DNA of 63,976 nucleotides, filler included, from Candidatus Nezhaarchaeota archaeon WYZ-LMO8 (GTDB lineage Archaea; Thermoproteota; Methanomethylicia; Nezhaarchaeales; WYZ-LMO8), in assembly GCA_004347965.1 (NCBI GenBank). It is 3 parts of 3 records of this genome, joined end to end, with 100 filler letters (N's around TTAATTAATTAA, not from the genome) between each part and the next. Parts side by side here need not be neighbours in the genome. Positions count along the whole stretch, not along the records: positions 30,326 to 59,631 come from QNVF01000016.1; 2 more parts are not named here. One strand, 5' to 3'. Positions 17,019-59,731 of this stretch are shown piece by piece (the stretch's first letter is position 1; each line of letters begins with the position of its first letter). The notes beneath the pieces are model-generated. The model worked only from the letters and a program-made list of their open reading frames with translations. It was not told the origin of the DNA and searched no databases. A program made the position numbers and the translations under genes.

Positions 17019-18005
17019 CTACTTTCCAGCAATCTTCTCTATGTAGTGACATGCAACTTTCCTGTTCATGTCGACTTCTATCATCTCTGGTTCTTCTTTA
17101 ACACATTTCATTCCATCAGAATATGGGCATCTCGGATGAAACCTACAACCCGACGGTGGATTTAGAGGGCTAGGTGGTTCACCCGTCACAACTCTTCTAA
17201 GTCTAAATCTATTATGAGGATCAGGATCTGGAACAGCATCAATTAAGGCTACTGTATACGGGTGAAGTGGCTCTTTCAGAATTCTTTGCGAGGGACCTAT
17301 TTCAAGAAGTTTTCCAGCATACATAACTGCTATTTTATCCGAGAAGTATTTTGTCGTAGCTATATCGTGAGTTATGTACATCATACCAATACCGTACTTT
17401 CCTTGTAAGGAGCGCATTAGGAGGAGTATCTCTACTCTGCTTGAAGCATCAATCATAGAGACAGGCTCATCAGCAACTATAAAGACAGGCTCAAGCACTA
17501 GACACCTTGCTATACCCACCCTTTGTCTCTGACCACCAGACAACATGTGTGGGTACTTTGAAAGAAAGGTCTCAGGAGGTAATAAGCGTACATCTTCAAG
17601 AGCCTTAATTACTCTTTCCTCTCTTTCTCTTGCATCAAATCCATGCACTACTAGTGGCTCTTCTATGATTTGTTTAATAGTCATAAACGGGTTTAACGAG
17701 GTGTAGGGATCTTGAAATATCATTTGAGCTTTTCTTCTAAACCATTTTAGATCTTCAGAAGAGAGGTTCGTTATATCCTTACCTTCAAAAATGATTTTGC
17801 CAGAAGTGGGTTCAACAAGCTTAAGCGCGGTCCTACCAAGGGTTGATTTTCCACTTCCTGATTCGCCTACTATGGCAACTGTTTCTCCTCTATTAATGCT
17901 GAGAGACACGCCATCAACTGCCTTTACGGCTAATGTCTTAAACAATCCTTTCCTAACGTAGAAATAAGTCCTTACCTCCTGGAGTTCCAGTAAAGAGTCC
18001 CTCAT
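17019..18005 (-). CDS. Oligopeptide/dipeptide ABC ATPase, OppF/DppF type
   Basis: GESGSGKS, LSGGQRQR, DEP, HPYT, GCRFHPRC. Confidence 0.93.
   Translation of the reverse strand: MRDSLLELQEVRTYFYVRKGLFKTLAVKAVDGVSLSINRGETVAIVGESGSGKSTLGRTALKLVEPTSGKIIFEGKDITNLSSEDLKWFRRKAQMIFQDPYTSLNPFMTIKQIIEEPLVVHGFDAREREERVIKALEDVRLLPPETFLSKYPHMLSGGQRQRVGIARCLVLEPVFIVADEPVSMIDASSRVEILLLMRSLQGKYGIGMMYITHDIATTKYFSDKIAVMYAGKLLEIGPSQRILKEPLHPYTVALIDAVPDPDPHNRFRLRRVVTGEPPSPLNPPSGCRFHPRCPYSDGMKCVKEEPEMIEVDMNRKVACHYIEKIAGK
17077..17159. repeat. 83-bp exact repeat, copy 1 (inside OppF-type gene)
   Basis: Identical to 18057-18139 on base-by-base reading. Confidence 0.9.
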
Positions 18006-18970
18006 TTTGAGCCACCACTATGGAGCCAACATTTTACAAAGTGATCATCTTCAACCTCTATCATCTCTGGTTCTTCTTTAACACATTTCATTCCATCAGA
18101 ATATGGGCATCTCGGATGAAACCTACAACCCGACGGTGGGCTCACAAGATCTGGTGGAGCTCCGGGTATGAATTCCGGCATTTTCTCTTCTCTTAATCGT
18201 GGAATACTGGCTATCAACTTTTGCGTATAAGGATGTCTTGGATTTAGCAGTACATTTTCACTTGAAGATAGTTCAACGATTTGTCCAGCATACATTACAC
18301 CTATTTTATCGCAGATATCGCTTGCCAAAGCAATATCATGAGTAATGAATATCATGGATAGTCCTAACTCCTTCTTTAGATTCTTCAAAAGGTTCATTAT
18401 TTGTGCTTGAATGCTCACGTCTAAAGCTGACGTGGGCTCATCTAAGATTACTATATCAGGATTGAGAATTAAAGCCATGGCAATGGCAGCTCGTTGTCTC
18501 ATGCCACCACTTAGCTCGTGCGGGTATCTATCAACATAATCCGGTGGCATTCCTACAAGCTTAAACAACTCTCTAACCTTCTTCAAAGTCTCGGGTTTTC
18601 TCATATTTTGATGAACCATCAGAGGTTCAGCAACTTGAAAGCCAATCTTTAAAACTGGGTTGAAAGAGCTCATAGCCCCTTGAGGAACCATTGAAATTTT
18701 CTTCCATCTAATCTTCTCTCTAAAGTCTTTCTCGCTAAGCTTTGATATATCAACACCGTTTAGAAGTATCCTTCCATCGTATAGCTCAACGTTTCTCGGT
18801 AGGAGACGCATTATTGCTATAGCTGTACTTGATTTTCCAGAGCCTGATTCTCCTACAAGTCCTAAGGTTTCCCCCTTTCCTAGGGAGAAGCTTACTCCGT
18901 CTACTGCTCTAAGCGTTCCCCTTGATGTTTTGTAATAGAGCATCAATTTTTGGACATCAAGGAGAGACAT
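18002..18970 (-). CDS. Oligopeptide/dipeptide ABC ATPase, OppD/DppD type
   Basis: GESGSGKS, YPHELSGGMRQR, DEPTSALD, HPYT, GCRFHPRC. Confidence 0.93.
   Translation of the reverse strand: MSLLDVQKLMLYYKTSRGTLRAVDGVSFSLGKGETLGLVGESGSGKSSTAIAIMRLLPRNVELYDGRILLNGVDISKLSEKDFREKIRWKKISMVPQGAMSSFNPVLKIGFQVAEPLMVHQNMRKPETLKKVRELFKLVGMPPDYVDRYPHELSGGMRQRAAIAMALILNPDIVILDEPTSALDVSIQAQIMNLLKNLKKELGLSMIFITHDIALASDICDKIGVMYAGQIVELSSSENVLLNPRHPYTQKLIASIPRLREEKMPEFIPGAPPDLVSPPSGCRFHPRCPYSDGMKCVKEEPEMIEVEDDHFVKCWLHSGGSK
18057..18139. repeat. 83-bp exact repeat, copy 2 (inside OppD-type gene)
   Basis: Identical to 17077-17159. Confidence 0.9.
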
Positions 18971-30225: not shown

Positions 30226-30325
30226 NNNNNNNNNNNNNNNNNNNNNNNNNNNNNNNNNNNNNNNNNNNNTTAATTAATTAANNNNNNNNNNNNNNNNNNN
30301 NNNNNNNNNNNNNNNNNNNNNNNNN
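30226..30325. other. Artificial contig linker (N44-TTAATTAATTAA-N44)
   Basis: 100-bp N block with a 12-mer giving stops in all six frames. Confidence 0.98.
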
Positions 30326-32578: not shown

Positions 32579-34081
32579 CTAAATCCCTCTACTGAAGATC
32601 TCTATAACTACGTAGTTAGTTAACAGTTCTGCGATTTCTGGAGGAAGTGATGCTAAGAGCTGATAGATCATGCCCATCTCCTTGGGAAAACCTTTCTCTA
32701 AACCCAGTATCTTTAATATTCTTTCACCGTAAACGTTAACCATCCTCTCCATATCTGAAAGTATCTTTCCCAGCGTAGCCAAGTCCATTTCTCCAGGCAC
32801 GAGCATGCTGAATATGGTTCCGAACATTTCCAAAAGTCCTTCTGCTTCTCGTGGAGGCATTTTCTTCACAGCTTCTGTGCAAACTTTGAGGTCAGAGATC
32901 ATGAGGTCAGATAAATCGTCGTGGATCGGAGTAATTGTTAGATGTACGCTAGGTGGAATGTTCATGTTTGCTATTCCTTTTTGTGGTAGAAAGAGCCATC
33001 CCTTCTTCGCCATCTCATCACAAAGAGTGAAGAGGTTGAGTTCATCAGAGGTGAAGGCGGCTATAACCGATGGCTCGCCCATAATCTTATAGCCTATCTC
33101 CTTTAAGCCTTTAACTATCTTGTTTCTCGCACTCACTAACTTCTTTGCAAGCTCCATATAGCCCTCTTCACCTAAGAAGTGGAGTATAGCCCAAGCTGCA
33201 GCTAAGAGAGCTTCTGAGCGTGAAGATAGGACTGCTGGATTAACTATCGGGTATCCTGGCCACCTAATGTTCGCATATTGAGAGAACATCTTATAGAACT
33301 TCTTCCTGAAAAGTACGATGGATGCTCCAATTGGTGTGTAAGCATATTTATGGGGGTCCATAGAGATGGAGCAGACGCCCTCTATCCTGAAATCGAATTC
33401 TGGAATGTTCTCACCAAGCTTCTTCATGAATGGTAGCACGAAACCGCCAACACATGCATCGACATGCATCCATATGTTCTTGTCTAAGGCTATTTCAGCT
33501 AGGTCCTTTATTGGGTCTATAGTCCCAAATGGCCAGTTTGGCGTAGAACCAACTATCATTGCTGTATTCTCAGTTATAGCTTCATTTATGGCATCAGGAT
33601 CTGCTGTTAAGCTCTCCTCGTCAACTCTAACTCTCTTAACCTTAAGACCCATGTACTCTGCTGCCTTATCGTAGCAGGGATGTCCTGTTACTGGCATCAC
33701 TATTTCTGGAATCGTTATCATCCCCCTGCTTAAAATGAACCTATCTCTAGCTGCTTTCACCGCAAGAAAGACGCTTTCTGTACCTCCAAATGTGAAGGTT
33801 CCAGTGACTTGTTCATCACCATGCACCAACGAGGAAGCAATATCAATTAAGTCCTTCTCCATTCTAATCATGCTTGGAAACTCCGTGAAGTCAAGCATGT
33901 TCTTAAAAGCAAACATCTTGAGAACTTCAAAGGCAACTGCCCTGAGCTCCTCGACACCTGGTTCAAATGCTATCGTAAAGAGCTTCCCACTAAATGGATC
34001 AGCATCGTCTCTACAATACTCATTTAGTCTTTGAATTATCTCTTCCTTGCTTAAACCCTTCTTTGGTAGACCCTTTCTCAT
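32579..34081 (-). CDS. PLP-dependent group II enzyme, sphingosine-1-phosphate-lyase/MfnA-like
   Basis: GGTES, HVDACVGGF, FDFRIEGV.SIS.DPHKY; C-terminal extension. Confidence 0.82.
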   Translation of the reverse strand: MRKGLPKKGLSKEEIIQRLNEYCRDDADPFSGKLFTIAFEPGVEELRAVAFEVLKMFAFKNMLDFTEFPSMIRMEKDLIDIASSLVHGDEQVTGTFTFGGTESVFLAVKAARDRFILSRGMITIPEIVMPVTGHPCYDKAAEYMGLKVKRVRVDEESLTADPDAINEAITENTAMIVGSTPNWPFGTIDPIKDLAEIALDKNIWMHVDACVGGFVLPFMKKLGENIPEFDFRIEGVCSISMDPHKYAYTPIGASIVLFRKKFYKMFSQYANIRWPGYPIVNPAVLSSRSEALLAAAWAILHFLGEEGYMELAKKLVSARNKIVKGLKEIGYKIMGEPSVIAAFTSDELNLFTLCDEMAKKGWLFLPQKGIANMNIPPSVHLTITPIHDDLSDLMISDLKVCTEAVKKMPPREAEGLLEMFGTIFSMLVPGEMDLATLGKILSDMERMVNVYGERILKILGLEKGFPKEMGMIYQLLASLPPEIAELLTNYVVIEIFSRGI

Positions 34082-37472: not shown

Positions 37473-37838
37473 TTAGACCTTACCTCTTTGTCTCTCCAAC
37501 ACTCGTGAAAGGAAGTAACCGAATGATGCTCCAAGTAGTCCTAGAACTAAGACTAGAACTAAGGAAATGATTAAGATCAATGAGAACATTGATGCTGCGA
37601 TGCCTACTCCAATAGGGTTCATTACATAATATGCTCCTAGATATATTATCCAGCACATCAACAAGCCTAGCCCACCTGCGATCACTGCTTTTACGAAGCT
37701 TTTTGATAGAAAACCACCTACTATGCTTGCAATGACGAGTAGCACCCATATCCTCGTTAGCTCAAGTGCACACGCTATGACTAAGGTTATGAGCAAGCAG
37801 ATCAGTAAACCAAGTCTTCGCATGCCATCACCTCTCAA
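37473..37838 (-). CDS. Hypothetical multi-TM membrane protein
   Basis: Gly-rich hydrophobic ORF translationally coupled to the acylase. Confidence 0.72.
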   Translation of the reverse strand: MRGDGMRRLGLLICLLITLVIACALELTRIWVLLVIASIVGGFLSKSFVKAVIAGGLGLLMCWIIYLGAYYVMNPIGVGIAASMFSLILIISLVLVLVLGLLGASFGYFLSRVLERQRGKV

Positions 37839-40366
37839 CCAGTAGGTGTAAGTATGATCCTACATACAGCATCCTTAACGTCCTCCGACTTAGCTGGAAA
37901 ACTCATGGTCTTGTATTTGCCATCAAGCCACATTCTAAGCTGATCGTAATACCACTCACTAAACGGGTTGCCTGATTGTCCACCTGGAATTACGCATAGG
38001 CTGTCATTCAGGTTAGCGAAGTTTAGTATCATCCTCCAAGAGGGGCCGTGACCACCGCCTTTCGCTATGTTGTTTACGCAATCGCTCCAACCAGGAGCCT
38101 CCCAAGCCGGATAGCTAAGTCCCCTAAACACGGTTCCTAGTTGATGCTCAGCACGTAGTTTATGAAGTTCGCCCAACCTCCACTTATGAGGATCATCGGT
38201 TTTGAATATGCCTTTAAGCTCCTCGACTGCTGCGTTGAGTGCCCTCTTTGCGATGTCAACTGCATCTTCGACTAAACCTTTCGTCGTAATGTCATCGAAC
38301 CACTTAGATTTCGGATTGTACAGCACTAAGTATTCTAATGTGCTATCTGGGACTCTATCCCAATAGTCTCTAAGACCCTTTTCTTCTAGTTCATCAATGA
38401 AGGTGTACATTTTGAAGTACTTGTACCATGTTATAAAGATGGCTGCCGCAGGAGAATCAATGCTCATTTCGTAGCTCCACGCTTTAAGTATGCTTTTAAT
38501 TTCTCCATCAGCCACGCTCACTAAGAGTTGGGTTAAGTTCCTTGCAAGTACGAATTGAACATCGTTCTGTATGCTACGCATGTCATTCATCGTGATTTTT
38601 CGCCCACTCCTTATGATATCCTCAATACGCTCAGTAATCCTGAAGGCTCTATAGTAGTCTGCAAATGTCCAAGCAACGTCGTAGATGAATGGATAATCGC
38701 TTACAGAAGCTAGTTTGTTGTTGGCTGTCACCACGTACCCCCATGGTGGATTCAATAGTTGAGGAGCCTCCCACGGCTCTATCCAGTCTTCCTCGTTCCA
38801 CTCAACAACGTCGAGTGCACTGCCATTTATTGGAAGTCGAGGTAGTAGTGGGTTAAGTGCTACAGCATTTGTTCCGTTAGGATACGTTCTGTTGGGATAT
38901 TTACCGCATGCCCTCCACCCTATGTTGCCGTAAATGTCTGCAACCACGTGGTTCTGTGGAGGTGTTTGGAAGTAGTTCATCGCATCGAAGAATTCACTAA
39001 TGTTGCGTGCACGTGAATACTTCCAGATAGCAACAGCCTCCGTTGTCCCTTTATGGCCAATCCAGCACATAGCAAATCGTGCTCCTCCCCTCTCTATTAA
39101 GGGACCGTGAACCGTGAAGTTTATGTAAATCGATCTCTCTTCGTAGCCTCCATCAGTCTTGACCCTTATGACCTCCTTCCTCCGATCTATCTTGCGAAGC
39201 TCGCCCTTGTACCAGTAATGGGTTTCATTTGCCCACTCATAGTAGTAGAAGTCTATTTGATCGGCCATGACGTTCGTGAAGCCCCAGCCAACGTATTGGT
39301 TGCTTCCTATAACCACAAGCGGGATACCTGGAAAAGTAACTCCTCTAACAATGAAGAGCTCGCCACCGCTTCTAACAGCATAATGAAGTTCGTACCATAC
39401 AGGTGGTACAGTTAACTGTAGGTGTGGATCGTTGCATAAGATTGGCTTGCCAGTATCAGTTAAAGCTCTACTAATCACCCAATTGTTCGATGCAAAGGCG
39501 TCAATTATAGGTGGCATCCAGGCATCCACAGATCTCTTCCACTCAAGTATTGACATCACGTCTTTGCTGTTCATGTGTATAGGTAGTGCAACAAGCCTTC
39601 CAGCAAGTTCCGAGTAATTGCCAAGAACAACTTTGTGACCAGGTTTCACGATATATGTCTCTAAATATCGATCGAGAGGAATAAGCTCCCAGACTTTGTC
39701 TCCAAGTCTTGAGTACAGCAAGTAGAGCTCGATGTCAGCGAAGGTCCCCGTTAACCCCCAAGCAATAAGCCTTGCTATCTCAAAAACGTTTAGTGGTGTC
39801 CAAGGTTCTGGCTCATACCCTAATAGCTTAAACTCTACTGGAAGTCCTTTGCTTGCCTTCATTTCTTCAATCGCCTTATTTACGCCACTACAATACGCCT
39901 CCAATAATTCGTATAGTTCAGGATGTTTAGCCTTAATTAGTTGGAGACTGGCTTCAGCACCTCTATGCAACCCAATAATTCTTTGGAACAAGTCTACGTC
40001 GTAAGCTATGCTACCAAATATCTCGGATAATCGGCCTTCCACTAGCCTCCTTTGAAGATCCATTTGCCAGAGCCTGTCATTTGCATGTATATATCCAATA
40101 GCAAAAGCAAGGTCCTTATCTGAATCTGCAAATATGTGTGGAACTCCATACCTGTCAATCACGATTATCACTTGACTTGTTAAGCCAGGTATCACAACCC
40201 TCTTATCGGCTGGAAGCTTAGCAACCACAGCATTTACCCATACACCTGAAGTAGGATCTGTAAGGGTAAGGAGTCTGTATGGTGAAAGAGGAATGGAGTA
40301 AGGCACTAGAAGCAATACTAAAAGCACTAGCGACACTACTAGACCTACTACCTCCTTTCTCTTCAT
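37835..40366 (-). CDS. Penicillin acylase family (Ntn-hydrolase), membrane-anchored
   Basis: DRYGVPHI, DRLWQMD, SNNW nucleophile site, NDPHL, TANN, PGGQSGNP. Confidence 0.92.
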   Translation of the reverse strand: MKRKEVVGLVVSLVLLVLLLVPYSIPLSPYRLLTLTDPTSGVWVNAVVAKLPADKRVVIPGLTSQVIIVIDRYGVPHIFADSDKDLAFAIGYIHANDRLWQMDLQRRLVEGRLSEIFGSIAYDVDLFQRIIGLHRGAEASLQLIKAKHPELYELLEAYCSGVNKAIEEMKASKGLPVEFKLLGYEPEPWTPLNVFEIARLIAWGLTGTFADIELYLLYSRLGDKVWELIPLDRYLETYIVKPGHKVVLGNYSELAGRLVALPIHMNSKDVMSILEWKRSVDAWMPPIIDAFASNNWVISRALTDTGKPILCNDPHLQLTVPPVWYELHYAVRSGGELFIVRGVTFPGIPLVVIGSNQYVGWGFTNVMADQIDFYYYEWANETHYWYKGELRKIDRRKEVIRVKTDGGYEERSIYINFTVHGPLIERGGARFAMCWIGHKGTTEAVAIWKYSRARNISEFFDAMNYFQTPPQNHVVADIYGNIGWRACGKYPNRTYPNGTNAVALNPLLPRLPINGSALDVVEWNEEDWIEPWEAPQLLNPPWGYVVTANNKLASVSDYPFIYDVAWTFADYYRAFRITERIEDIIRSGRKITMNDMRSIQNDVQFVLARNLTQLLVSVADGEIKSILKAWSYEMSIDSPAAAIFITWYKYFKMYTFIDELEEKGLRDYWDRVPDSTLEYLVLYNPKSKWFDDITTKGLVEDAVDIAKRALNAAVEELKGIFKTDDPHKWRLGELHKLRAEHQLGTVFRGLSYPAWEAPGWSDCVNNIAKGGGHGPSWRMILNFANLNDSLCVIPGGQSGNPFSEWYYDQLRMWLDGKYKTMSFPAKSEDVKDAVCRIILTPTG

Positions 40367-40601: not shown

Positions 40602-41243
40602 ATGGAGAGGAGAGTTAGCTTCAAGAGTGGATATCTAGTTCTTGAAGGCATCCTCCACCTTCCCTCTGAAGTTAAGGGAAGAGTGCCAGCTATAGTGGTC
40701 TGCCACCCTCATCCTCTCTATGGTGGATCCATGTACAACATCATGGTTGAGAAGCTATGTAGAAAGTTAGAGAGCTCAGGTCTCATCACACTTCGCTTCA
40801 ACTTTAGAGGAGTAGGATTCAGTGAGGGGGTCTACGATGGAGGGGTTAGTGAAGTAATGGACGTGAAAGCAGCCCTCAACTTCCTAGAAACCATTGACCC
40901 ACAAGCCCTTAAGTTGTTTGGCATCGCAGGCTACTCTTTCGGAGCTTACGTAGCTTCTCGTGCAGCAGAGGATCCTAGAGTTAAGGCTTTAGCCTTAATA
41001 TCTCCTCCATTCGCCTTCTACAACTTCGATAATCTTAGGTACATTCGTAAACCAAAGCTAATTGTTTGGGGCGATCAAGACGAGTTTGTGAGTGCCACTA
41101 TCGAGGAAGTAGTCGGCATGATAGCTGAGCCGAAGAAACTCATTTTAGTCAAGGGAGCAGATCACTTCTGGTTTGGCTACGAGGACGAAGTGAGTGATAC
41201 GGTTACATCATTCTTCCAAGACATTTTTAAAGCTGGTCATTGA
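40602..41243 (+). CDS. Alpha/beta hydrolase
   Basis: CHPHPLYGGSM, RFNFRGVG.S.G, GYSFG, GDQD, ADHF. Confidence 0.9.
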   Translation: MERRVSFKSGYLVLEGILHLPSEVKGRVPAIVVCHPHPLYGGSMYNIMVEKLCRKLESSGLITLRFNFRGVGFSEGVYDGGVSEVMDVKAALNFLETIDPQALKLFGIAGYSFGAYVASRAAEDPRVKALALISPPFAFYNFDNLRYIRKPKLIVWGDQDEFVSATIEEVVGMIAEPKKLILVKGADHFWFGYEDEVSDTVTSFFQDIFKAGH

Positions 41244-41367: not shown

Positions 41368-41925
41368 TTGGAGGAAGAAGCTTGCTTGCAACAATTCTTA
41401 GGTGATAACTTGGAGTTGGAGATAATTAATGTCAAGCATAATCCACTAAAAGACGAGGATATTAAAGCTATAGTTAGTATCGAGTTGCATCCGGATGTTA
41501 GAAAGTGGCTTCCAGACTATGCCTACGAGGATTTTGATAAGGAGTTCAAAGACTACAAGAAGTTCTTTCAGGATTTACAGAATAACAATAAAGTTGAGGT
41601 ATTAGTTGCTAGAGTTAATGGTCGTATAGTTGGTTTCCTAGCTTTATGGCGAATGGTTGAGTATGAGGAGCACGTGAGGAGCATAGGGGTAAGTGTTCAT
41701 CCAGATTACCGGAAGAAAGGTATAGCAACGAAGCTAGTGAAGAAAGCTATAGAGCTGGCTAAAGAGCTAGGCGCCAAGAAGCTCATCATCGAAACTTTAG
41801 AGGAGAACATTGCTATGAGGCGAGTGGCTGAAAAATTAAAGTTCAAGTTAGAGTATGTTAGAAGGAGTAGGGAGTTTAAGGACGGTTCACGTCATAATGA
41901 GTACGTCTATTTACTAAGCCTTTAA
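41368..41925 (+). CDS. GNAT-family N-acetyltransferase
   Basis: VHPDYRKKGIAT acetyl-CoA motif A; N.AM....EKL.F motif B; start uncertain. Confidence 0.9.
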   Translation: MEEEACLQQFLGDNLELEIINVKHNPLKDEDIKAIVSIELHPDVRKWLPDYAYEDFDKEFKDYKKFFQDLQNNNKVEVLVARVNGRIVGFLALWRMVEYEEHVRSIGVSVHPDYRKKGIATKLVKKAIELAKELGAKKLIIETLEENIAMRRVAEKLKFKLEYVRRSREFKDGSRHNEYVYLLSL

Positions 41926-41966
41926 ATGAAGACCTAGGGGTTCCTAAAGAACCAAGATTTCCAATA

Positions 41967-41980
41967 GAAAACTTTAAATA
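41967..41980 (+). promoter_or_regulatory. BRE-TATA promoter candidate for kamA
   Basis: GAAAACTTTAAATA ~25 bp upstream of TTG 42005. Confidence 0.5.
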
Positions 41981-42004
41981 GTCAGAGCTTAAGCGACCTA
42001 AGCT

Positions 42005-43108
42005 TTGGTACATTGCGAGCGCGAAGCATTTATGGATGAAGATTGGAAAAGCATTCTCAAAGAAAGCATAACCAGACCAGAGCAAATCCTCGAGAGATTC
42101 GATGTCGACATAAAGCCCATTAAAAAAGTTGCAGAAGTCTATCCGATGTTCATTTCTAGGTACTACTTTAACCTCATAGAGGAGGTTGAAGATCCAATAT
42201 GGAAGCAGTGCATACCAAGTCCTCTTGAGCTCCAAGACCTCTACGGCTATGAGGATCCACTAAGCGAGGAGGTTATGAGCCCAGTACCAGGCTTAGTGCA
42301 TAGGTACCCAGATAGGGTTTTAATGTGTGTTTCAAATAGTTGCGCTACCTATTGCAGATTTTGCACGAGGAAAAGGAAGGTTGGTAGACCAGAGGTAAGT
42401 TATACTGATGAAATCTACTTGGCGCAAATAAGCTACGTTCGTGAGAAACCAAAGATTAGAGATGTACTTCTATCTGGTGGAGACCCATTCATGCTTCCAG
42501 ATGAGAAGATAGAGTTCCTGCTAAAGAAGTTACGCGAGATACCTCACGTTGAGATCATAAGGATAGGTACGAGAGTTCCATGTACGCTACCTCAGAGGAT
42601 AACACCAAAGCTATGCAACATTCTTAAGAAGTATCACCCATTATACGTGAACGTACACTTTGAGCATCCACGTGAGATAACAGAGGAATCTGAGAGAGCA
42701 TGTGGATTGCTAGCTGATGCAGGTATACCACTTGGAAACCAATCCGTCCTATTAAAAGGGGTTAACGATAGTCCAGAGGTAATGAAGGAGCTCTGTCAGA
42801 AGTTGCTTAAGATGCGCGTTAGACCCTACTATCTCTTCCAAATGGATCCAGTGAAGGGAGCATCTCACTTCAGGACTAGGGTTGAAGTTGGCATCAAAAT
42901 AATAGAGTCTCTAATTGGCTGGACCTCTGGATTAGCTGTGCCACGCTTCGTTATTGATGCACCGGGCGGAGGAGGTAAGATACCCATCGAGCCGAACTAC
43001 ATAATCTCAATTGATGATGAGAAAGTCGTTTTAAGGAACTACGAGGGGAAGATATTCGTTTATCCACAAGCGCGACCACACATGAAGGGGTTGATAGCCG
43101 TACATTAG
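42005..43108 (+). CDS. kamA: KamA-family radical SAM 2,3-aminomutase
   Basis: LVHRYPDRVL, CATYCRFCTRKR, SGGDP, RIGTRVP, NQSVLLKGVND, RPYY, DAPGGGGK; start 42005 (TTG) or 42032 (ATG). Confidence 0.92.
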   Translation: MVHCEREAFMDEDWKSILKESITRPEQILERFDVDIKPIKKVAEVYPMFISRYYFNLIEEVEDPIWKQCIPSPLELQDLYGYEDPLSEEVMSPVPGLVHRYPDRVLMCVSNSCATYCRFCTRKRKVGRPEVSYTDEIYLAQISYVREKPKIRDVLLSGGDPFMLPDEKIEFLLKKLREIPHVEIIRIGTRVPCTLPQRITPKLCNILKKYHPLYVNVHFEHPREITEESERACGLLADAGIPLGNQSVLLKGVNDSPEVMKELCQKLLKMRVRPYYLFQMDPVKGASHFRTRVEVGIKIIESLIGWTSGLAVPRFVIDAPGGGGKIPIEPNYIISIDDEKVVLRNYEGKIFVYPQARPHMKGLIAVH

Positions 43109-43132
43109 AAGCAAAGATAGAAAGGGATTGCC

Positions 43133-44185
43133 ATGACTCTTAGAGTTGGCTTAACGTACAATCTTAGAAGGAAAGTTGAGGACAATAGCTTGCCAGAGGA
43201 CTACTATGTAGAATACGACGACGAGAGCACCGTTGATGCCATCGCTTCGGCCTTAAGGAAGGGCGGATGCAAGGTAATAAAGATAGAGGCTAACGAGGAG
43301 GCATACATTAAGCTATGCAGATGTAGACCTGATATAGTCTTCAACATCGCTGAAGGTCTACGTGGTGAGAGCAGAGAATCACATATCCCAGCAATACTAG
43401 AGATGCTTGGAATACCTTATACGGGCTCTAGTTCATCGACTTTAGCTATATGCCTAGATAAGGCCTTGACCCACAAGGTTCTTAGCGCCTACGGAGTTCC
43501 ATCACCAAAATTCCAGGTCTTTAAACGACCAGATGAGAAGTTAAGTGGAGAACTGGAGTTTCCACTAGTAGTTAAGCCGCTACTTGAAGGCTCTAGCAAG
43601 GGTATTAGAAACAGCTCGTTAGTGAGAGATGAATATAGCTTGAGGAGACAGGTCTCATGGGTTATCAAGACCTACAATCAGCCAGCTATAGTCGAAGAAT
43701 TCATGCCTGGAAGAGAGTTCACAGTTGGGCTAATAGGTAACGAGGAGCCAGTTGTACTACCAATCGTAGAGATACACCTTGAGAGGCTACCAAACGGTGC
43801 AAATCCAATATACTCTTACGAGGCTAAGTGGGTTTGGGATACGCCTGAAAGACCATTAGACATATTCGAGTGCCCGGCGAGGATACCAAGTGACTTAAAG
43901 AGGGAAGTGGAGGAGATCGCAATTAAGACCTTTAACGTTTTAAACTGTAGAGATCTTTGTCGTATAGATATGAGGTTAGATAAGGACGGAGTGCCAAGGG
44001 TTTTAGAGGTTAATCCTCTACCTGGCTTAATTCCGGATCCAAGGGCTCACTCATGCTTACCAGAAGCTGCGAGAGCTCTAGGCTTTACGTACGATGAGCT
44101 GATATGCACCATTCTATGGCAAGCCTTAAAGAGATACGGCATGCAGCAATTGTTTAAGAATAAGTCTCTGGTAAAGATACCGTGA
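43133..44185 (+). CDS. ATP-grasp ligase, D-Ala-D-Ala-ligase-like (paralog 1)
   Basis: FNIAEG, IPYTGS, DK, VKP..EGSSKGI, EEFMPGREFTV, RID.R, EVNPLPG; lacks the Ddl N-terminal GGxSxE. Confidence 0.88.
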   Translation: MTLRVGLTYNLRRKVEDNSLPEDYYVEYDDESTVDAIASALRKGGCKVIKIEANEEAYIKLCRCRPDIVFNIAEGLRGESRESHIPAILEMLGIPYTGSSSSTLAICLDKALTHKVLSAYGVPSPKFQVFKRPDEKLSGELEFPLVVKPLLEGSSKGIRNSSLVRDEYSLRRQVSWVIKTYNQPAIVEEFMPGREFTVGLIGNEEPVVLPIVEIHLERLPNGANPIYSYEAKWVWDTPERPLDIFECPARIPSDLKREVEEIAIKTFNVLNCRDLCRIDMRLDKDGVPRVLEVNPLPGLIPDPRAHSCLPEAARALGFTYDELICTILWQALKRYGMQQLFKNKSLVKIP

Positions 44186-44197
44186 GAAGATCACTTC

Positions 44198-45223
44198 TCA
44201 ATGCTGTCTAGGATTTTGCTTCGCTCTCTTAAGTGCGAAGCTTATTATCATCTCTACAAATTCTTCAAAAGATATTCTAGCAGCTCTCAATGAGCGTACG
44301 AAGCCTGAATCTGGCGATATGTCTGGGTTAGGATTAACCTCGAGGACGTACGGCATCCCAGTTCTAGCGTCTAAGCGTACATCGATCCTCGCGTAATCTC
44401 TACACTTTAAGGCTCTATATGCTCTGATAGCTATCTCCTCAATCGTGCTCTTGAGGGGGGCATCTATCTTAGCAGGGCAGAGGGGCTTGGTCTTCACATA
44501 TTCTTCACTATCTTTAAACCACTTAGCCTTGTAGCCGACTATTTTAGGGTCTTCATCATATTCAAAAACTATCTCTGAAATCGGTAGAACAACAAGTTCA
44601 TCGTTGCCTAATATAGAGACGTTAAACTCTCTTCCACTGATGTACTCTTCGACTAGAGCTGGCTGCTCATAAGTGCTAATTACATACTTCACTTGTCTCT
44701 CTAGCTCTGCAAGGTTTCTAACAAAGCTATCCTTAGTAATCCCTATGCTAGCATCCTCTCTCAAAGGCTTAACTATAAGTGGAAAGCTTAATCCCTCTGG
44801 GGGCTCAAAGACTTTCATTACTCGATACTTTGGTGTTGGTATGCCATTAGCTCTAAGAACATCCTTAGCTAGACCCTTATCTTGACATAAACCGAGAGTT
44901 AACGGTGTAGACCCTGTGTAGGGTATTCTCAGCATCTCTAATATTGATGCTGCGTGCATTTCAAGGCTGCTATCGCCCATATACCCTTCAGAGAGGTTTA
45001 TGACTACATCAGGCTTATGGGCCCTCAACGACTTTATAATCTCCCCTATGTCATCTCTAAGTGGAAAGAGCTGATAGTTAAAGCCAAGCCTTACTAGAGC
45101 TTCTTCAACTGCCTTCACTTGATCTAGCACATTGACCTCAGCTAAGTAATCCGCATCTTCACCTTTCTTAGGTCTTACAGGGACGTTGAATAATATGCCG
45201 ACCAAAAGAGCCAACCATTTCAC
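44198..45223 (-). CDS. ATP-grasp ligase, D-Ala-D-Ala-ligase-like (paralog 2)
   Basis: INLSEG, IPYTGS, VKP..EDASIGI, EEYISGREFNV, YARIDVR, EVNPNPD. Confidence 0.88.
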   Translation of the reverse strand: MKWLALLVGILFNVPVRPKKGEDADYLAEVNVLDQVKAVEEALVRLGFNYQLFPLRDDIGEIIKSLRAHKPDVVINLSEGYMGDSSLEMHAASILEMLRIPYTGSTPLTLGLCQDKGLAKDVLRANGIPTPKYRVMKVFEPPEGLSFPLIVKPLREDASIGITKDSFVRNLAELERQVKYVISTYEQPALVEEYISGREFNVSILGNDELVVLPISEIVFEYDEDPKIVGYKAKWFKDSEEYVKTKPLCPAKIDAPLKSTIEEIAIRAYRALKCRDYARIDVRLDARTGMPYVLEVNPNPDISPDSGFVRSLRAARISFEEFVEMIISFALKRAKQNPRQH

Positions 45224-45377
45224 CGCCTTTGCTTCACACTCTTACCTAAAGATTCTTCTATAAAGTCTTTGAGCTAGAATAAGAGCTATCCCTTCATCGA
45301 TGCTTACAACCATTATTGTAGAGCTTAAGTCCTCTGATCACTATTTAAGAGCTGATAATGTCTAGTGTAAGCTGAGA

Positions 45378-45631: not shown

Positions 45632-47005
45632 ATGTCCTGTTTAAGAGGCTTTGGCCTACCAATAGGCTATACGACTCGACCAACGGTAAGGCCTGTGATG
45701 ACTTTAGGTCTCATAGTCACCAACACGATAGTTTACCTCTTAACTTCATATGAAAACAGCTTTTTGACGATAAGCAGTCGTTGGATCATCCTCGGAGGCT
45801 ATATACCATCTATGCTTGAAGCATTAGATCAGCTCTACAGGTTGCTTTCATCGATGTTCTTGCATGCAGATATTTTCCACATACTCTTCAACATGTACTT
45901 TCTCTACATATTTGGTAGAGCAATTGAGGAGGCATTGGGCAAGTGGAGGTTTCTAGCTTTGTACTTAGCGTCCGGGGTACTAGCAGCTCTCTTCCACACA
46001 GCTTTCAGTTTCATCGGGGGAGCATCAGCTTACACAATCCCAGCCATTGGTGCTTCAGGAGCTATTAGCGGGATTTTAGGTGCTTACTTGATATTATTCC
46101 CAGGCACAACGCTCTTTGTAGGCTGGTTCTTCTTCATAATTCCAGTCTTCCTCAGAATGAGAGCAGCCTATTTCTTAATCATGTGGTTTGCGATGCAAGT
46201 AGCCTACGGATACGCGAAGATAGGTGGCATAGCATTCTTCGCTCACGCTGGAGGATTCGTAGCTGGAATAGCACTGCTCCCCATGTTTAAGGTTAGAAGC
46301 GAGGGTAGCATTTCTCGATTGAAACTCTTAGAAGAACTAGGACGGCTTAGCACGCATGTAGCATTTACAGAGACTTCTAGAAGCATTAGAGGTTTAAGTC
46401 GAGGGACTAAGATCGTAGTCGCTCTACTATTAACTTCACTCCTCGCCGGTGCAGCTTATGCTTCATCTGGCTTACTCGTTGAAGAAGGCCTTAAGGCAAT
46501 CACGTTACACTATACATTCGAGGGAGCACAGTACATCGACTACGTGGGAGTACAAAAATCTAATATTGAAAGGCAGCTCAGCGCTATACCGAAAAGTGAA
46601 ACACGAATCCTATTGAATAGGTTGTATGCAGCAGACCTGCTATACGATGAAGCTAAAGCTGGTAAGGAATTGAAGATAGATAACTGGCACGATAGGGTAT
46701 TCATGAGTATTGAGAAACGCCGAGTTATCGTGGATGTTTTAATGATTAGCTTTACTGGTAGTTACGACTTAGATGGCTTCTTAAGCTATGGCATAGGCGA
46801 GCTGAAGACTCAAGTGGTTCTCATAGGTCAAAACCGTGTTTCAGTCACTGACTACATGGTGCACTACATCTTTGAAGTCACTTCGAAAACTGTGAACATA
46901 GAAAACATACTACGAATTACTGGGCTAATATCACTAATTACTTCAGCACTTGCCCTTTTAGTAGTCCTTACGAAAGATAAAGAGCTTACCCTAGTAGGCG
47001 AATAA
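45632..47005 (+). CDS. Rhomboid intramembrane serine protease with long C-terminal extension
   Basis: SMFLH...HILFNM, GASG (Ser), AHAGG (His); ~230 extra aa bounded by TM helices. Confidence 0.9.
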   Translation: MSCLRGFGLPIGYTTRPTVRPVMTLGLIVTNTIVYLLTSYENSFLTISSRWIILGGYIPSMLEALDQLYRLLSSMFLHADIFHILFNMYFLYIFGRAIEEALGKWRFLALYLASGVLAALFHTAFSFIGGASAYTIPAIGASGAISGILGAYLILFPGTTLFVGWFFFIIPVFLRMRAAYFLIMWFAMQVAYGYAKIGGIAFFAHAGGFVAGIALLPMFKVRSEGSISRLKLLEELGRLSTHVAFTETSRSIRGLSRGTKIVVALLLTSLLAGAAYASSGLLVEEGLKAITLHYTFEGAQYIDYVGVQKSNIERQLSAIPKSETRILLNRLYAADLLYDEAKAGKELKIDNWHDRVFMSIEKRRVIVDVLMISFTGSYDLDGFLSYGIGELKTQVVLIGQNRVSVTDYMVHYIFEVTSKTVNIENILRITGLISLITSALALLVVLTKDKELTLVGE

Positions 47006-59631: not shown

Positions 59632-59731
59632 NNNNNNNNNNNNNNNNNNNNNNNNNNNNNNNNNNNNNNNNNNNNTTAATTAATTAANNNNNNNNNNNNN
59701 NNNNNNNNNNNNNNNNNNNNNNNNNNNNNNN
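59632..59731. other. Artificial contig linker (N44-TTAATTAATTAA-N44)
   Basis: Same structure as 30226-30325. Confidence 0.98.

Follow-up and report, generated by a model that had tools for sequence, protein, structure and literature searches.

Related beta-lysine and peptide-ligase systems

Two described routes to small solutes lie closest to the locus reported here. In the AblA/AblB pathway, a lysine 2,3-aminomutase and an acetyltransferase make a beta-lysine osmolyte (PMC1224877, PMC11337218, PMC3543383, PMC9337991). In the N-acetylglutaminylglutamine amide (NAGGN) pathway, Ngg both acetylates and ligates glutamine (PMC8070244). Here, we analyzed a cluster of four genes at positions 41368 to 45223 of a stretch of DNA from Candidatus Nezhaarchaeota archaeon WYZ-LMO8 (GCA_004347965.1); the whole stretch of 63,976 nucleotides is referred to as the window. 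The cluster, termed the cassette, encodes a GNAT acetyltransferase, a KamA-family aminomutase and two ATP-grasp proteins with the fold of D-alanine-D-alanine ligase (Ddl). The cassette most likely serves the non-ribosomal, ATP-grasp-dependent synthesis of a small amide, with the GNAT subfamily swapped in this archaeon.

Like AblA/AblB, the locus has a lysine 2,3-aminomutase beside a GNAT, and beta-lysine would be the basis of the product in both cases (PMC1224877, PMC11337218, PMC3543383). In contrast, AblA and AblB operate without a ligase, the GNAT of the window is not AblB, and the KamA of the window is shorter and scores under the AblA cut-off. The likeness to the Ngg and AsnO system of Sinorhizobium and Pseudomonas lies in a non-ribosomal, N-acetylated dipeptide solute made by acetylation and peptide bond formation (PMC8070244). 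NAGGN synthesis differs in that it starts from glutamine, involves an amidotransferase, needs a single ligase and lacks an aminomutase, Ngg being compared by its description only. Ngg is a fusion of a GNAT and an ATP-grasp domain, which parallels fusions of the second cassette ligase with a GNAT. A GNAT and a peptide ligase are adjacent in 57 of the 80 loci surveyed below, and they form one chain in L117-L119 and L164. No amidotransferase was present among the conserved neighbours of the cassette loci.

With Ddl and Van enzymes, both ligases have the three-domain fold and the catalytic residues in common. They differ in lacking the GGxSxE motif, in replacements of the pocket His, Glu and Tyr, in extra acidic residues and in forming separate clades; in addition, cassette hosts keep a separate Ddl or need none. 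The EpmA/EpmB/EF-P system also employs a KamA-family enzyme that supplies beta-lysine for an amide bond, but the window KamA reaches only 249 of 369 bits with the EpmB model, and the EpmA ligase is a paralogue of lysyl-tRNA synthetase. By analogy, the cassette would work most like a blend of AblA/AblB and NAGGN, standing outside both as well as outside Ddl and EpmA/EpmB.

KamA and the two Ddl-fold ligases

A first-pass annotation of the window had placed four adjacent genes here, and their coordinates, strands and spacings were confirmed by the open reading frames: 24 bp separate kamA from ligase 1, and the convergent ends of ligase 1 and ligase 2 lie 12 bp apart. Pfam and NCBIfam scans recovered a GNAT, a KamA-family protein and two Dala_Dala_lig_C proteins below the Ddl cut-offs.

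KamA is encoded on the + strand (longest reading frame 42005-43108; likely ATG start, 42032..43108, 358 aa). It matches the solved lysine 2,3-aminomutase 2a5h with an E value of 2e-121 and passes the KamA-family model TIGR00238 with 299 bits against a cut-off of 199. Among the more specific NCBIfam models, AblA (TIGR03820) scored best with 491 bits, followed by glutamate mutase (449), arginine mutase (346) and EpmB (249), each below its own cut-off. The radical SAM motif CxxxCxxC is found at 113-120 (C113/C117/C120) and the lysine binding pyridoxal phosphate (PLP) is K325 in GGGK, numbered from 42005. R122, D281, D318 and K325 align with R134, D293, D330 and K337 of 2a5h. Equivalents of these four residues and the CxxxCxxC cysteines are invariant in all 70 KamA proteins from cassette loci. 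Together with the 2a5h match, this agrees with the initial assignment of KamA to beta-lysine; the enzyme is likely lysine-specific and would form beta-lysine.

KamA has a classical catabolic role, and many catabolic genes are present in the window. This might point to KamA starting lysine fermentation while the ligases activate catabolic intermediates. We regard that scenario as highly improbable: amide ligases consume ATP, no lysine-fermentation gene was recognised among the annotated conserved neighbours, and lysine 5,6-aminomutase had no match in the genome, in a weak search in which the controls had no match either.

Ligase 1 (43133-44185, + strand) is a Ddl-fold ATP-grasp protein of the clade Lig1, and ligase 2 (longest reading frame 44198-45223, - strand; likely TTG start at 45214, 338 aa) belongs to the clade Lig2. 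The two are 44% identical. AlphaFold models of both are confident, with predicted local distance difference test (pLDDT) values of 95.8 and 95.1. In structure they match best to Ddl, with template modelling scores of 0.67-0.77 by query at 21-29% identity, and none was closer among the matches listed. Such matches in sequence and fold to Ddl and Van enzymes, together with the labels that JGI gives to relatives, would favour true D-Ala-D-Ala or D-Ala-D-X ligases. That identity is, however, extremely improbable. Scores of 197 and 169 bits stay below the Ddl cut-off of 243. In a tree of 180 proteins rooted on five true Ddl, ligase 1 and ligase 2 form separate clades behind a long branch. All five tested bacteria carrying both ligases keep a true Ddl elsewhere in the genome, and the host of the window is an archaeon. 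The initial view that the ligases stand apart from true Ddl is backed by these results. As judged from the sequences, the ligases are intact, distinct and not Ddl.

The catalytic Lys/Glu/Arg/Asp/Asn set is retained in both clades, and in ligase 1 comprises K110, K148, E188, E195, R277, D279, E292, N294 and G298. The GGxSxE, LHG, EDG and omega-loop Tyr elements of Ddl are replaced in both clades, the changes being His to Glu, Glu to Arg or variable, and Tyr to Trp. Thus, the first-pass statement that the ATP-grasp core is kept and the GGxSxE segment is lacking holds for the motif as a whole. It does not extend to the glutamate of the motif, which seems to be retained (Lig1 E27 in 83/84, Lig2 E29 in 49/77), the alignment being loose in this region. 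In ligase 1, E74 takes the place of the Ddl His and R81 that of the Ddl Glu (84/84 each), W233 stands for the omega-loop Tyr (82/84), and the acceptor-site serine S307 is kept (83/84). Ligase 2 carries D157 and D301 (numbered from 45223) at positions of Ddl glycines, with Asp in 76/77 and 75/77 of the clade, and W235 for the omega-loop Tyr (77/77). Its acceptor serine is mostly exchanged for alanine in the clade (52/77); the window copy has serine. The extra acidic pocket residues would fit cationic substrates.

A complex model of ligase 1 with ligase 2 scored 0.80 compared to 0.00 for the best control, with contacts agreeing to at least 93% and a partner pLDDT of at least 88. The mark applied was reached by 116 of 157 solved pairs and by 2 of 215 mismatched pairs. 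The interface helices in the model correspond to the dimer surface of Ddl, and the pass may reflect likeness to solved Ddl dimers alone.

Linkage across genomes and the exchanged acetyltransferase

With ligase 1 as query, the species genomes of GTDB yielded at least 577 confirmed stretches among 600 candidates, and the best 80 were analyzed. These 80 loci were picked by ligase 1 alone, and cassette parts were counted by a score threshold within 7 kb or to the contig end. Ligase 1 was above threshold in 79, ligase 2 in 73, kamA in 66 and either GNAT in 57 loci; all four parts occurred together in 50. The lineages covered include Bathyarchaeia, Nitrososphaerales, Woesearchaeota, Bacteroidota, Ignavibacteria, Acidobacteriota, Gemmatimonadota, Deltaproteobacteria and others. 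The usual bacterial order is ligase 1, ligase 2, GNAT and kamA, and it is shuffled in archaea and Deltaproteobacteria. In L018, KamA is fused to ligase 1, and the Lig2-GNAT chains mentioned above add a second kind of fusion. Where ligase loci had no kamA, a close KamA was found elsewhere in four of five genomes. The predicted linkage of the ligases to kamA and GNAT is borne out by these counts and fusions, and the kamA-ddl-ddl-GNAT neighbourhoods suggested for anaerobic bacteria were indeed recovered in the survey. On this comparison, GNAT, kamA and the two ligases form a conserved unit.

In the phylum of L027, 82 of 251 genomes match the ligase 2 profile at E 1e-70, a number that includes related subfamilies with other partners. 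Among 41 genomes near that of the window, all four genes are present in the same four of seven genus members, and no close copy of the four genes was found in the 34 relatives outside the genus. In a tree of 31 ligase 1 proteins, the four genus copies nest among Bathyarchaeia sequences (support 100/98 and 97/93), which suggests an exchange between this genus and Bathyarchaeia, with no donor claimed. A plasmid search returned 14 records, all below 60% identity, with 36-40% among the 12 matches listed, representing distant rhizobial ligases only. One of these relatives (38%), on the rhizobial symbiosis plasmid pNGR234a (L174:5899-8981), lies beside a CapA-family gene, without kamA. A description of the cassette was absent from the literature searched, which did not extend to most subscription papers or to supplements; the cassette is widespread and apparently undescribed.

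Other genes accompany the cassette in part of the loci. A third, RimK-like ATP-grasp protein joins it at L039:6084-6989, L049:10891-11901 and L078:9954-10868. An M24 metallopeptidase is located near the cassette in 13 loci, often directly after kamA (L032, L033, L042, L043 and other Bacteroidota/Ignavibacteria); it is possible that it hydrolyzes the product, or that it reflects lineage synteny. Other subfamilies of the Ddl-like clade, with fusions of 635-761 aa and different conserved partners, are found at L153:8005-12535 and L163:1951-6510 and in L161 and L162.

The neighbouring KamA and GNAT, arranged as in ablAB (PMC1224877, PMC11337218), could also make N-epsilon-acetyl-beta-lysine as in methanogens, with the ligases unrelated. 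This explanation is very unlikely. AblB (TIGR03827) was absent from the 22 NCBIfam matches of the GNAT and from the 93%-complete genome, while controls were positive in 6 of 14 cases, in line with the first-pass exclusion of an AblA/AblB pair. Moreover, the association of kamA with the ligases is closer than that with either GNAT, and in one locus kamA is fused to ligase 1.

The GNAT of the window (longest reading frame 41368-41925, + strand) probably starts at a TTG codon (41410..41925, 171 aa) preceded by a Shine-Dalgarno sequence at 41400-41405. Over the 80 loci two GNAT subfamilies alternate, type A in 45 and type B in 12, and none has both. The window has a Lig1-clade ligase, a Lig2-clade ligase and a short KamA together, as in the bacterial cassette, but it differs in having no type A GNAT; a type B protein stands in its place. 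Type B matches the RimJ/RimL-like Acetyltransf_3 profile and was seen in Bathyarchaeia and Nezhaarchaeales copies only. A type A profile built from 44 proteins gave its members 134-240 bits, compared to 36 bits for the best protein of the window's genome. Type A GNATs match PDB entry 2r7h, 'putative D-alanine N-acetyltransferase of GNAT family', with an E value of 3.5e-32. This entry is a solved member of the usual cassette GNAT under a putative name, and it was not among the seven PDB matches of the window type B protein, the best of which are weak general acetyltransferases. We take 2r7h to be a structural-genomics target from Desulfovibrio strain G20.

To follow type B, 201 Bathyarchaeia-class genomes were surveyed, including three seed loci, at a match threshold of E 1e-20; close relatives among them are not independent. 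Of 17 type B matches, 15 were strong (45-64% identity) and two weak (35-36%). All 15 genomes with strong matches have a close ligase 1 and a close KamA, adjacent in 13; the two with weak matches lack them. A close ligase 1 was found in 19 of the 201 genomes, leaving four without type B. Of five further genomes with kamA and both ligases, one contained type B and none contained type A, which the search did detect in a control. The position of type B varies, either upstream of kamA or beyond ligase 2 (L003, L014).

Such a pattern might also arise if kamA and the two ligases formed the core, giving a non-acetylated product, and the GNAT of the window were linked but separate, acting in protein acetylation, detoxification or recycling. 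The distance of type B from the usual GNAT, its weak matches to general acetyltransferases, the trios in which neither GNAT was found and a kamA promoter downstream of the GNAT all fit this view. We nevertheless consider it quite unlikely, as strong type B matches occur only with the cassette (15/15 in the 201 genomes and 4/4 in the genus), on either side of it and never with type A in the 80 loci. The simplest reading would be a non-orthologous replacement of the GNAT, with acetylation being exchangeable and perhaps optional. The first-pass annotation had overlooked that the GNAT subfamily differs from that of bacterial operons, that neither GNAT was found beside some trios or elsewhere in their genomes, and that GNAT and kamA are probably not one transcript.

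Proposed product, its possible control and the locus layout

On balance, we favor a pathway in which beta-lysine is the substrate of the ligases, two amide bonds are formed, one amine is acetylated and a small solute or polyamine-like cation results. KamA would first turn L-lysine into beta-lysine, a step well supported by sequence. Each Ddl-fold ligase would then make one amide bond via an acyl phosphate, possibly as a heterodimer. Ligase 1, with its acceptor-carboxylate serine kept, would couple beta-lysine with an amino acid, in the simplest case another beta-lysine, and ligase 2, with its two gained aspartates, could use a more cationic partner, e.g., a polyamine or the side-chain amine of beta-lysine. 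Finally, the GNAT would cap a free amine, with either subfamily serving this purpose and the step perhaps being skipped in some lineages. Such a pathway would yield a small amide or peptide of beta-lysine that is acetylated and probably acts as a stress solute or as a cation resembling polyamines.

Two observations bear on the product. Polyamine genes are located directly upstream of the ligases or kamA in five of the 80 loci (L027, L031, L034, L039, L041), in varying sets of a deoxyhypusine-synthase-like gene, agmatinase and pyruvoyl arginine decarboxylase. In addition, an acidic stretch ending in EPP is found near the start of ligase 1 or KamA in 24 of 88 operon-first genes and in none of 57 internal ones, compared to 22 of 781 other reading frames; the count was taken outside the archaeal group of the window, with loci of the sibling cassette described below left out, and related genomes inflate it. 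Examples at the N-termini of ligase 1, KamA or a PLP enzyme occur in L019, L040, L048, L143, L164 and L108. An RNA element acting as anti-Shine-Dalgarno sequence was ruled out as an explanation, since both prolines are encoded by all four possible codons across 25 examples; EPP is therefore a peptide feature. EPP is listed as a strong EF-P-dependent stall in one report (PMC5499558), and AZIN1 is limited by polyamine-induced stalling at PPW, a diprolyl stall, in another (PMC11550727). In the first gene of the operon, EPP could be an EF-P- or polyamine-sensitive ribosome pause that gives product feedback. At L165:3755-4225 and L166:4072-4647, a reading frame upstream of ligase 1 has a KamA-like N-terminus with EPP, after which similarity is lost; it is perhaps a decayed kamA or a leader peptide.

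A sibling cassette without kamA is built from a Lig1-clade ligase, a PLP enzyme resembling threonine synthase, a MurL-like protein and a GNAT of a third type. It was present in 16 of 16 regions inspected (L108-L116, L120-L126) from about 32 candidate Bathyarchaeia-class genomes, one being cut by a contig end, and its GNAT is sometimes fused to the ligase. The PLP enzyme scores 353 bits with PRK06381, over the cut-off, and the MurL-like protein (452 aa, Atlas score 0.97) has no Pfam match. As far as sequence comparison goes, the two cassettes show a recurring plan of a precursor enzyme, a ligase, a second ATP-dependent enzyme and an acetyltransferase.

Several points weigh against the beta-lysine amide pathway. 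The order of steps, the ligase partners and the identities of substrate and product are a proposal derived from sequence, and so are the di- or tripeptide, the solute and the modification put forward in the first-pass annotation. KamA misses the AblA equivalog cut-off of 525 bits, its match covering positions 8-361 of 417 of the profile, because its C-terminal domain is short (only positions 1-58 of 127 of LAM_C are present). For its specificity, we assume that R134, D293, D330 and K337 of 2a5h are the contacts to the carboxylate of the substrate, to the side-chain amine of lysine and to PLP. The pocket residues of the ligases were assigned from alignment rather than from ligand-bound models, and the roles of the Ddl residues in the acceptor site, the oxyanion hole and the omega loop are likewise presumed. 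R81 of ligase 1, in place of the Ddl Glu, is not easily reconciled with a free di-amino donor. As D301 sits at the oxyanion-hole glycine, ligase 2 could turn over slowly or be regulatory. The Lig1 clade is apparently not bound to beta-lysine, because close relatives of ligase 1 occur in the kamA-less sibling cassette. Neither GNAT was found in four Bathyarchaeia carrying the trio, whose completeness is not given. The polyamine neighbours are confined to five loci, of which three are closely related, and EPP is missing both from the window and from each of the 76 cassette genes scored in its archaeal group.

If ATP-grasp ligation is not directed at a small amine, the acceptor might instead be a macromolecule or cofactor, for instance a protein, a tRNA, a lipid or a folate/pterin-type compound, onto which the ligases load beta-lysine or a beta-lysyl peptide. 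The ATP-grasp enzymes RimK and LysX, which modify proteins, set a precedent, and the EPP motif ties expression to translation. Across the 80 loci, the cassette has no conserved neighbour that encodes a transporter, hydrolase, carrier or target; the lack of the former two would fit a bound product, that of the latter two speaks against it. EpmA was over its cut-off in none of five cassette bacteria (the genome of the window was not searched for it), which leaves their KamA without a known use in EF-P modification and agrees with the initial claim that this is not EpmA/EpmB. On the other hand, the fold is of the Ddl type and not of the RimK type, only one of seven EF-P proteins from the five bacteria has a PGKG lysine loop, and archaea use aIF5A. 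Overall, attachment to a macromolecule or cofactor seems unlikely, and EF-P was rejected as an unlikely common target in view of the EpmA scores and the PGKG count. The EF-P loops of these five bacteria (L167-L173) are mostly without lysine and varied, with arginine, asparagine or other tips; in L170, efp has a neighbour that by eye resembles an arginine decarboxylase gene.

A bolder version of the favored small-amide pathway, which we hold to be doubtful, would have the two-ligase heterodimer make an unknown polyamine-like cation, either an acetylated beta-lysyl-polyamine or a beta-lysine oligomer, shared across many phyla of bacteria and several groups of archaea. Pausing of ribosomes at EPP in the first gene would restrain its synthesis in many of the bacteria, in parallel to the polyamine-sensing stall at PPW in eukaryotes.

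If small-amide synthesis from beta-lysine is correct, a gene set that is common among anaerobic bacteria and archaea, and that databases often annotate as D-Ala-D-Ala ligase, makes an unidentified metabolite. It would represent a new use of beta-lysine beside fermentation, AblA/AblB and EF-P, and would account for the occurrence of Ddl-like genes in archaea without a wall. It would also provide two new ATP-grasp specificities that could serve the synthesis of beta-amino-acid amides, and a function for the structural-genomics GNAT 2r7h. The GNAT subfamily swap offers a built-in test of the acetylation step.

The genome holds a single copy each of GNAT, kamA, ligase 1 and ligase 2, and the cluster lies wholly within one contig of the window (C8). 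Likely start sites were chosen by Shine-Dalgarno and promoter positions and by homologue lengths. A transcription factor B recognition element (BRE) and TATA box of kamA, whose function is deduced from consensus, is located at 41964..41980 (+ strand) between GNAT and kamA, followed by a short leader at 41981..42031 (+ strand). A probable BRE and TATA of ligase 2 at 45257..45271 (- strand) is a consensus match only. The position of the kamA element is shared, by eye, by 20 of 22 aligned archaeal upstream regions, the exceptions being two Nitrososphaerales, and it is present with or without a GNAT upstream. Because this element sits between GNAT and kamA, kamA probably has its own archaeal promoter and the locus would be transcribed as three units: GNAT alone, kamA together with ligase 1, and, from the opposite strand, ligase 2. 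A sigma-70 scan gave nothing above chance, its bacterial consensus being unsuited to an archaeal host.

In Bathyarchaeia, the kamA leader contains a hairpin that is conserved, with G-U pairs and compensatory changes among its variants, and a GCGCG-like word comes after it; the genus of the window has retained the word, but its hairpin is replaced. The hairpin has 7-9 bp and lies directly before the kamA start in L002-L010, L014, L016 and L017. Rfam at gathering score returned one tRNA only for 14 loci including the cluster of the window (L081), and therefore no known riboswitch in these loci. In one sediment RNA run, contigs about 96-97% alike span kamA together with the start of ligase 1 and part of the GNAT, with the flanks uncovered; these contigs carry neither strand nor level and are counted as no evidence of transcription. 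Of three hot-spring RNA runs, two yielded no read and one yielded 2 partial reads, which is no test of level or condition.

The alpha/beta hydrolase (40602-41243) and rhomboid (45632-47005) genes flanking the cluster were excluded as cassette members, as they are not conserved beside it. The same lack of conservation with the cassette applies to two upstream genes on the - strand, a PLP-dependent decarboxylase-family gene (32579-34081) and a penicillin-amidase-family gene (37835-40366). Spacers of N at 30226-30325 and 59632-59731 separate the contigs C7, C8 and C59, and adjacency across them is not real. Elsewhere in the window, an 89-bp direct repeat occurs at 17071-17159 and 18051-18139, its copies 98% identical and about 1 kb apart.

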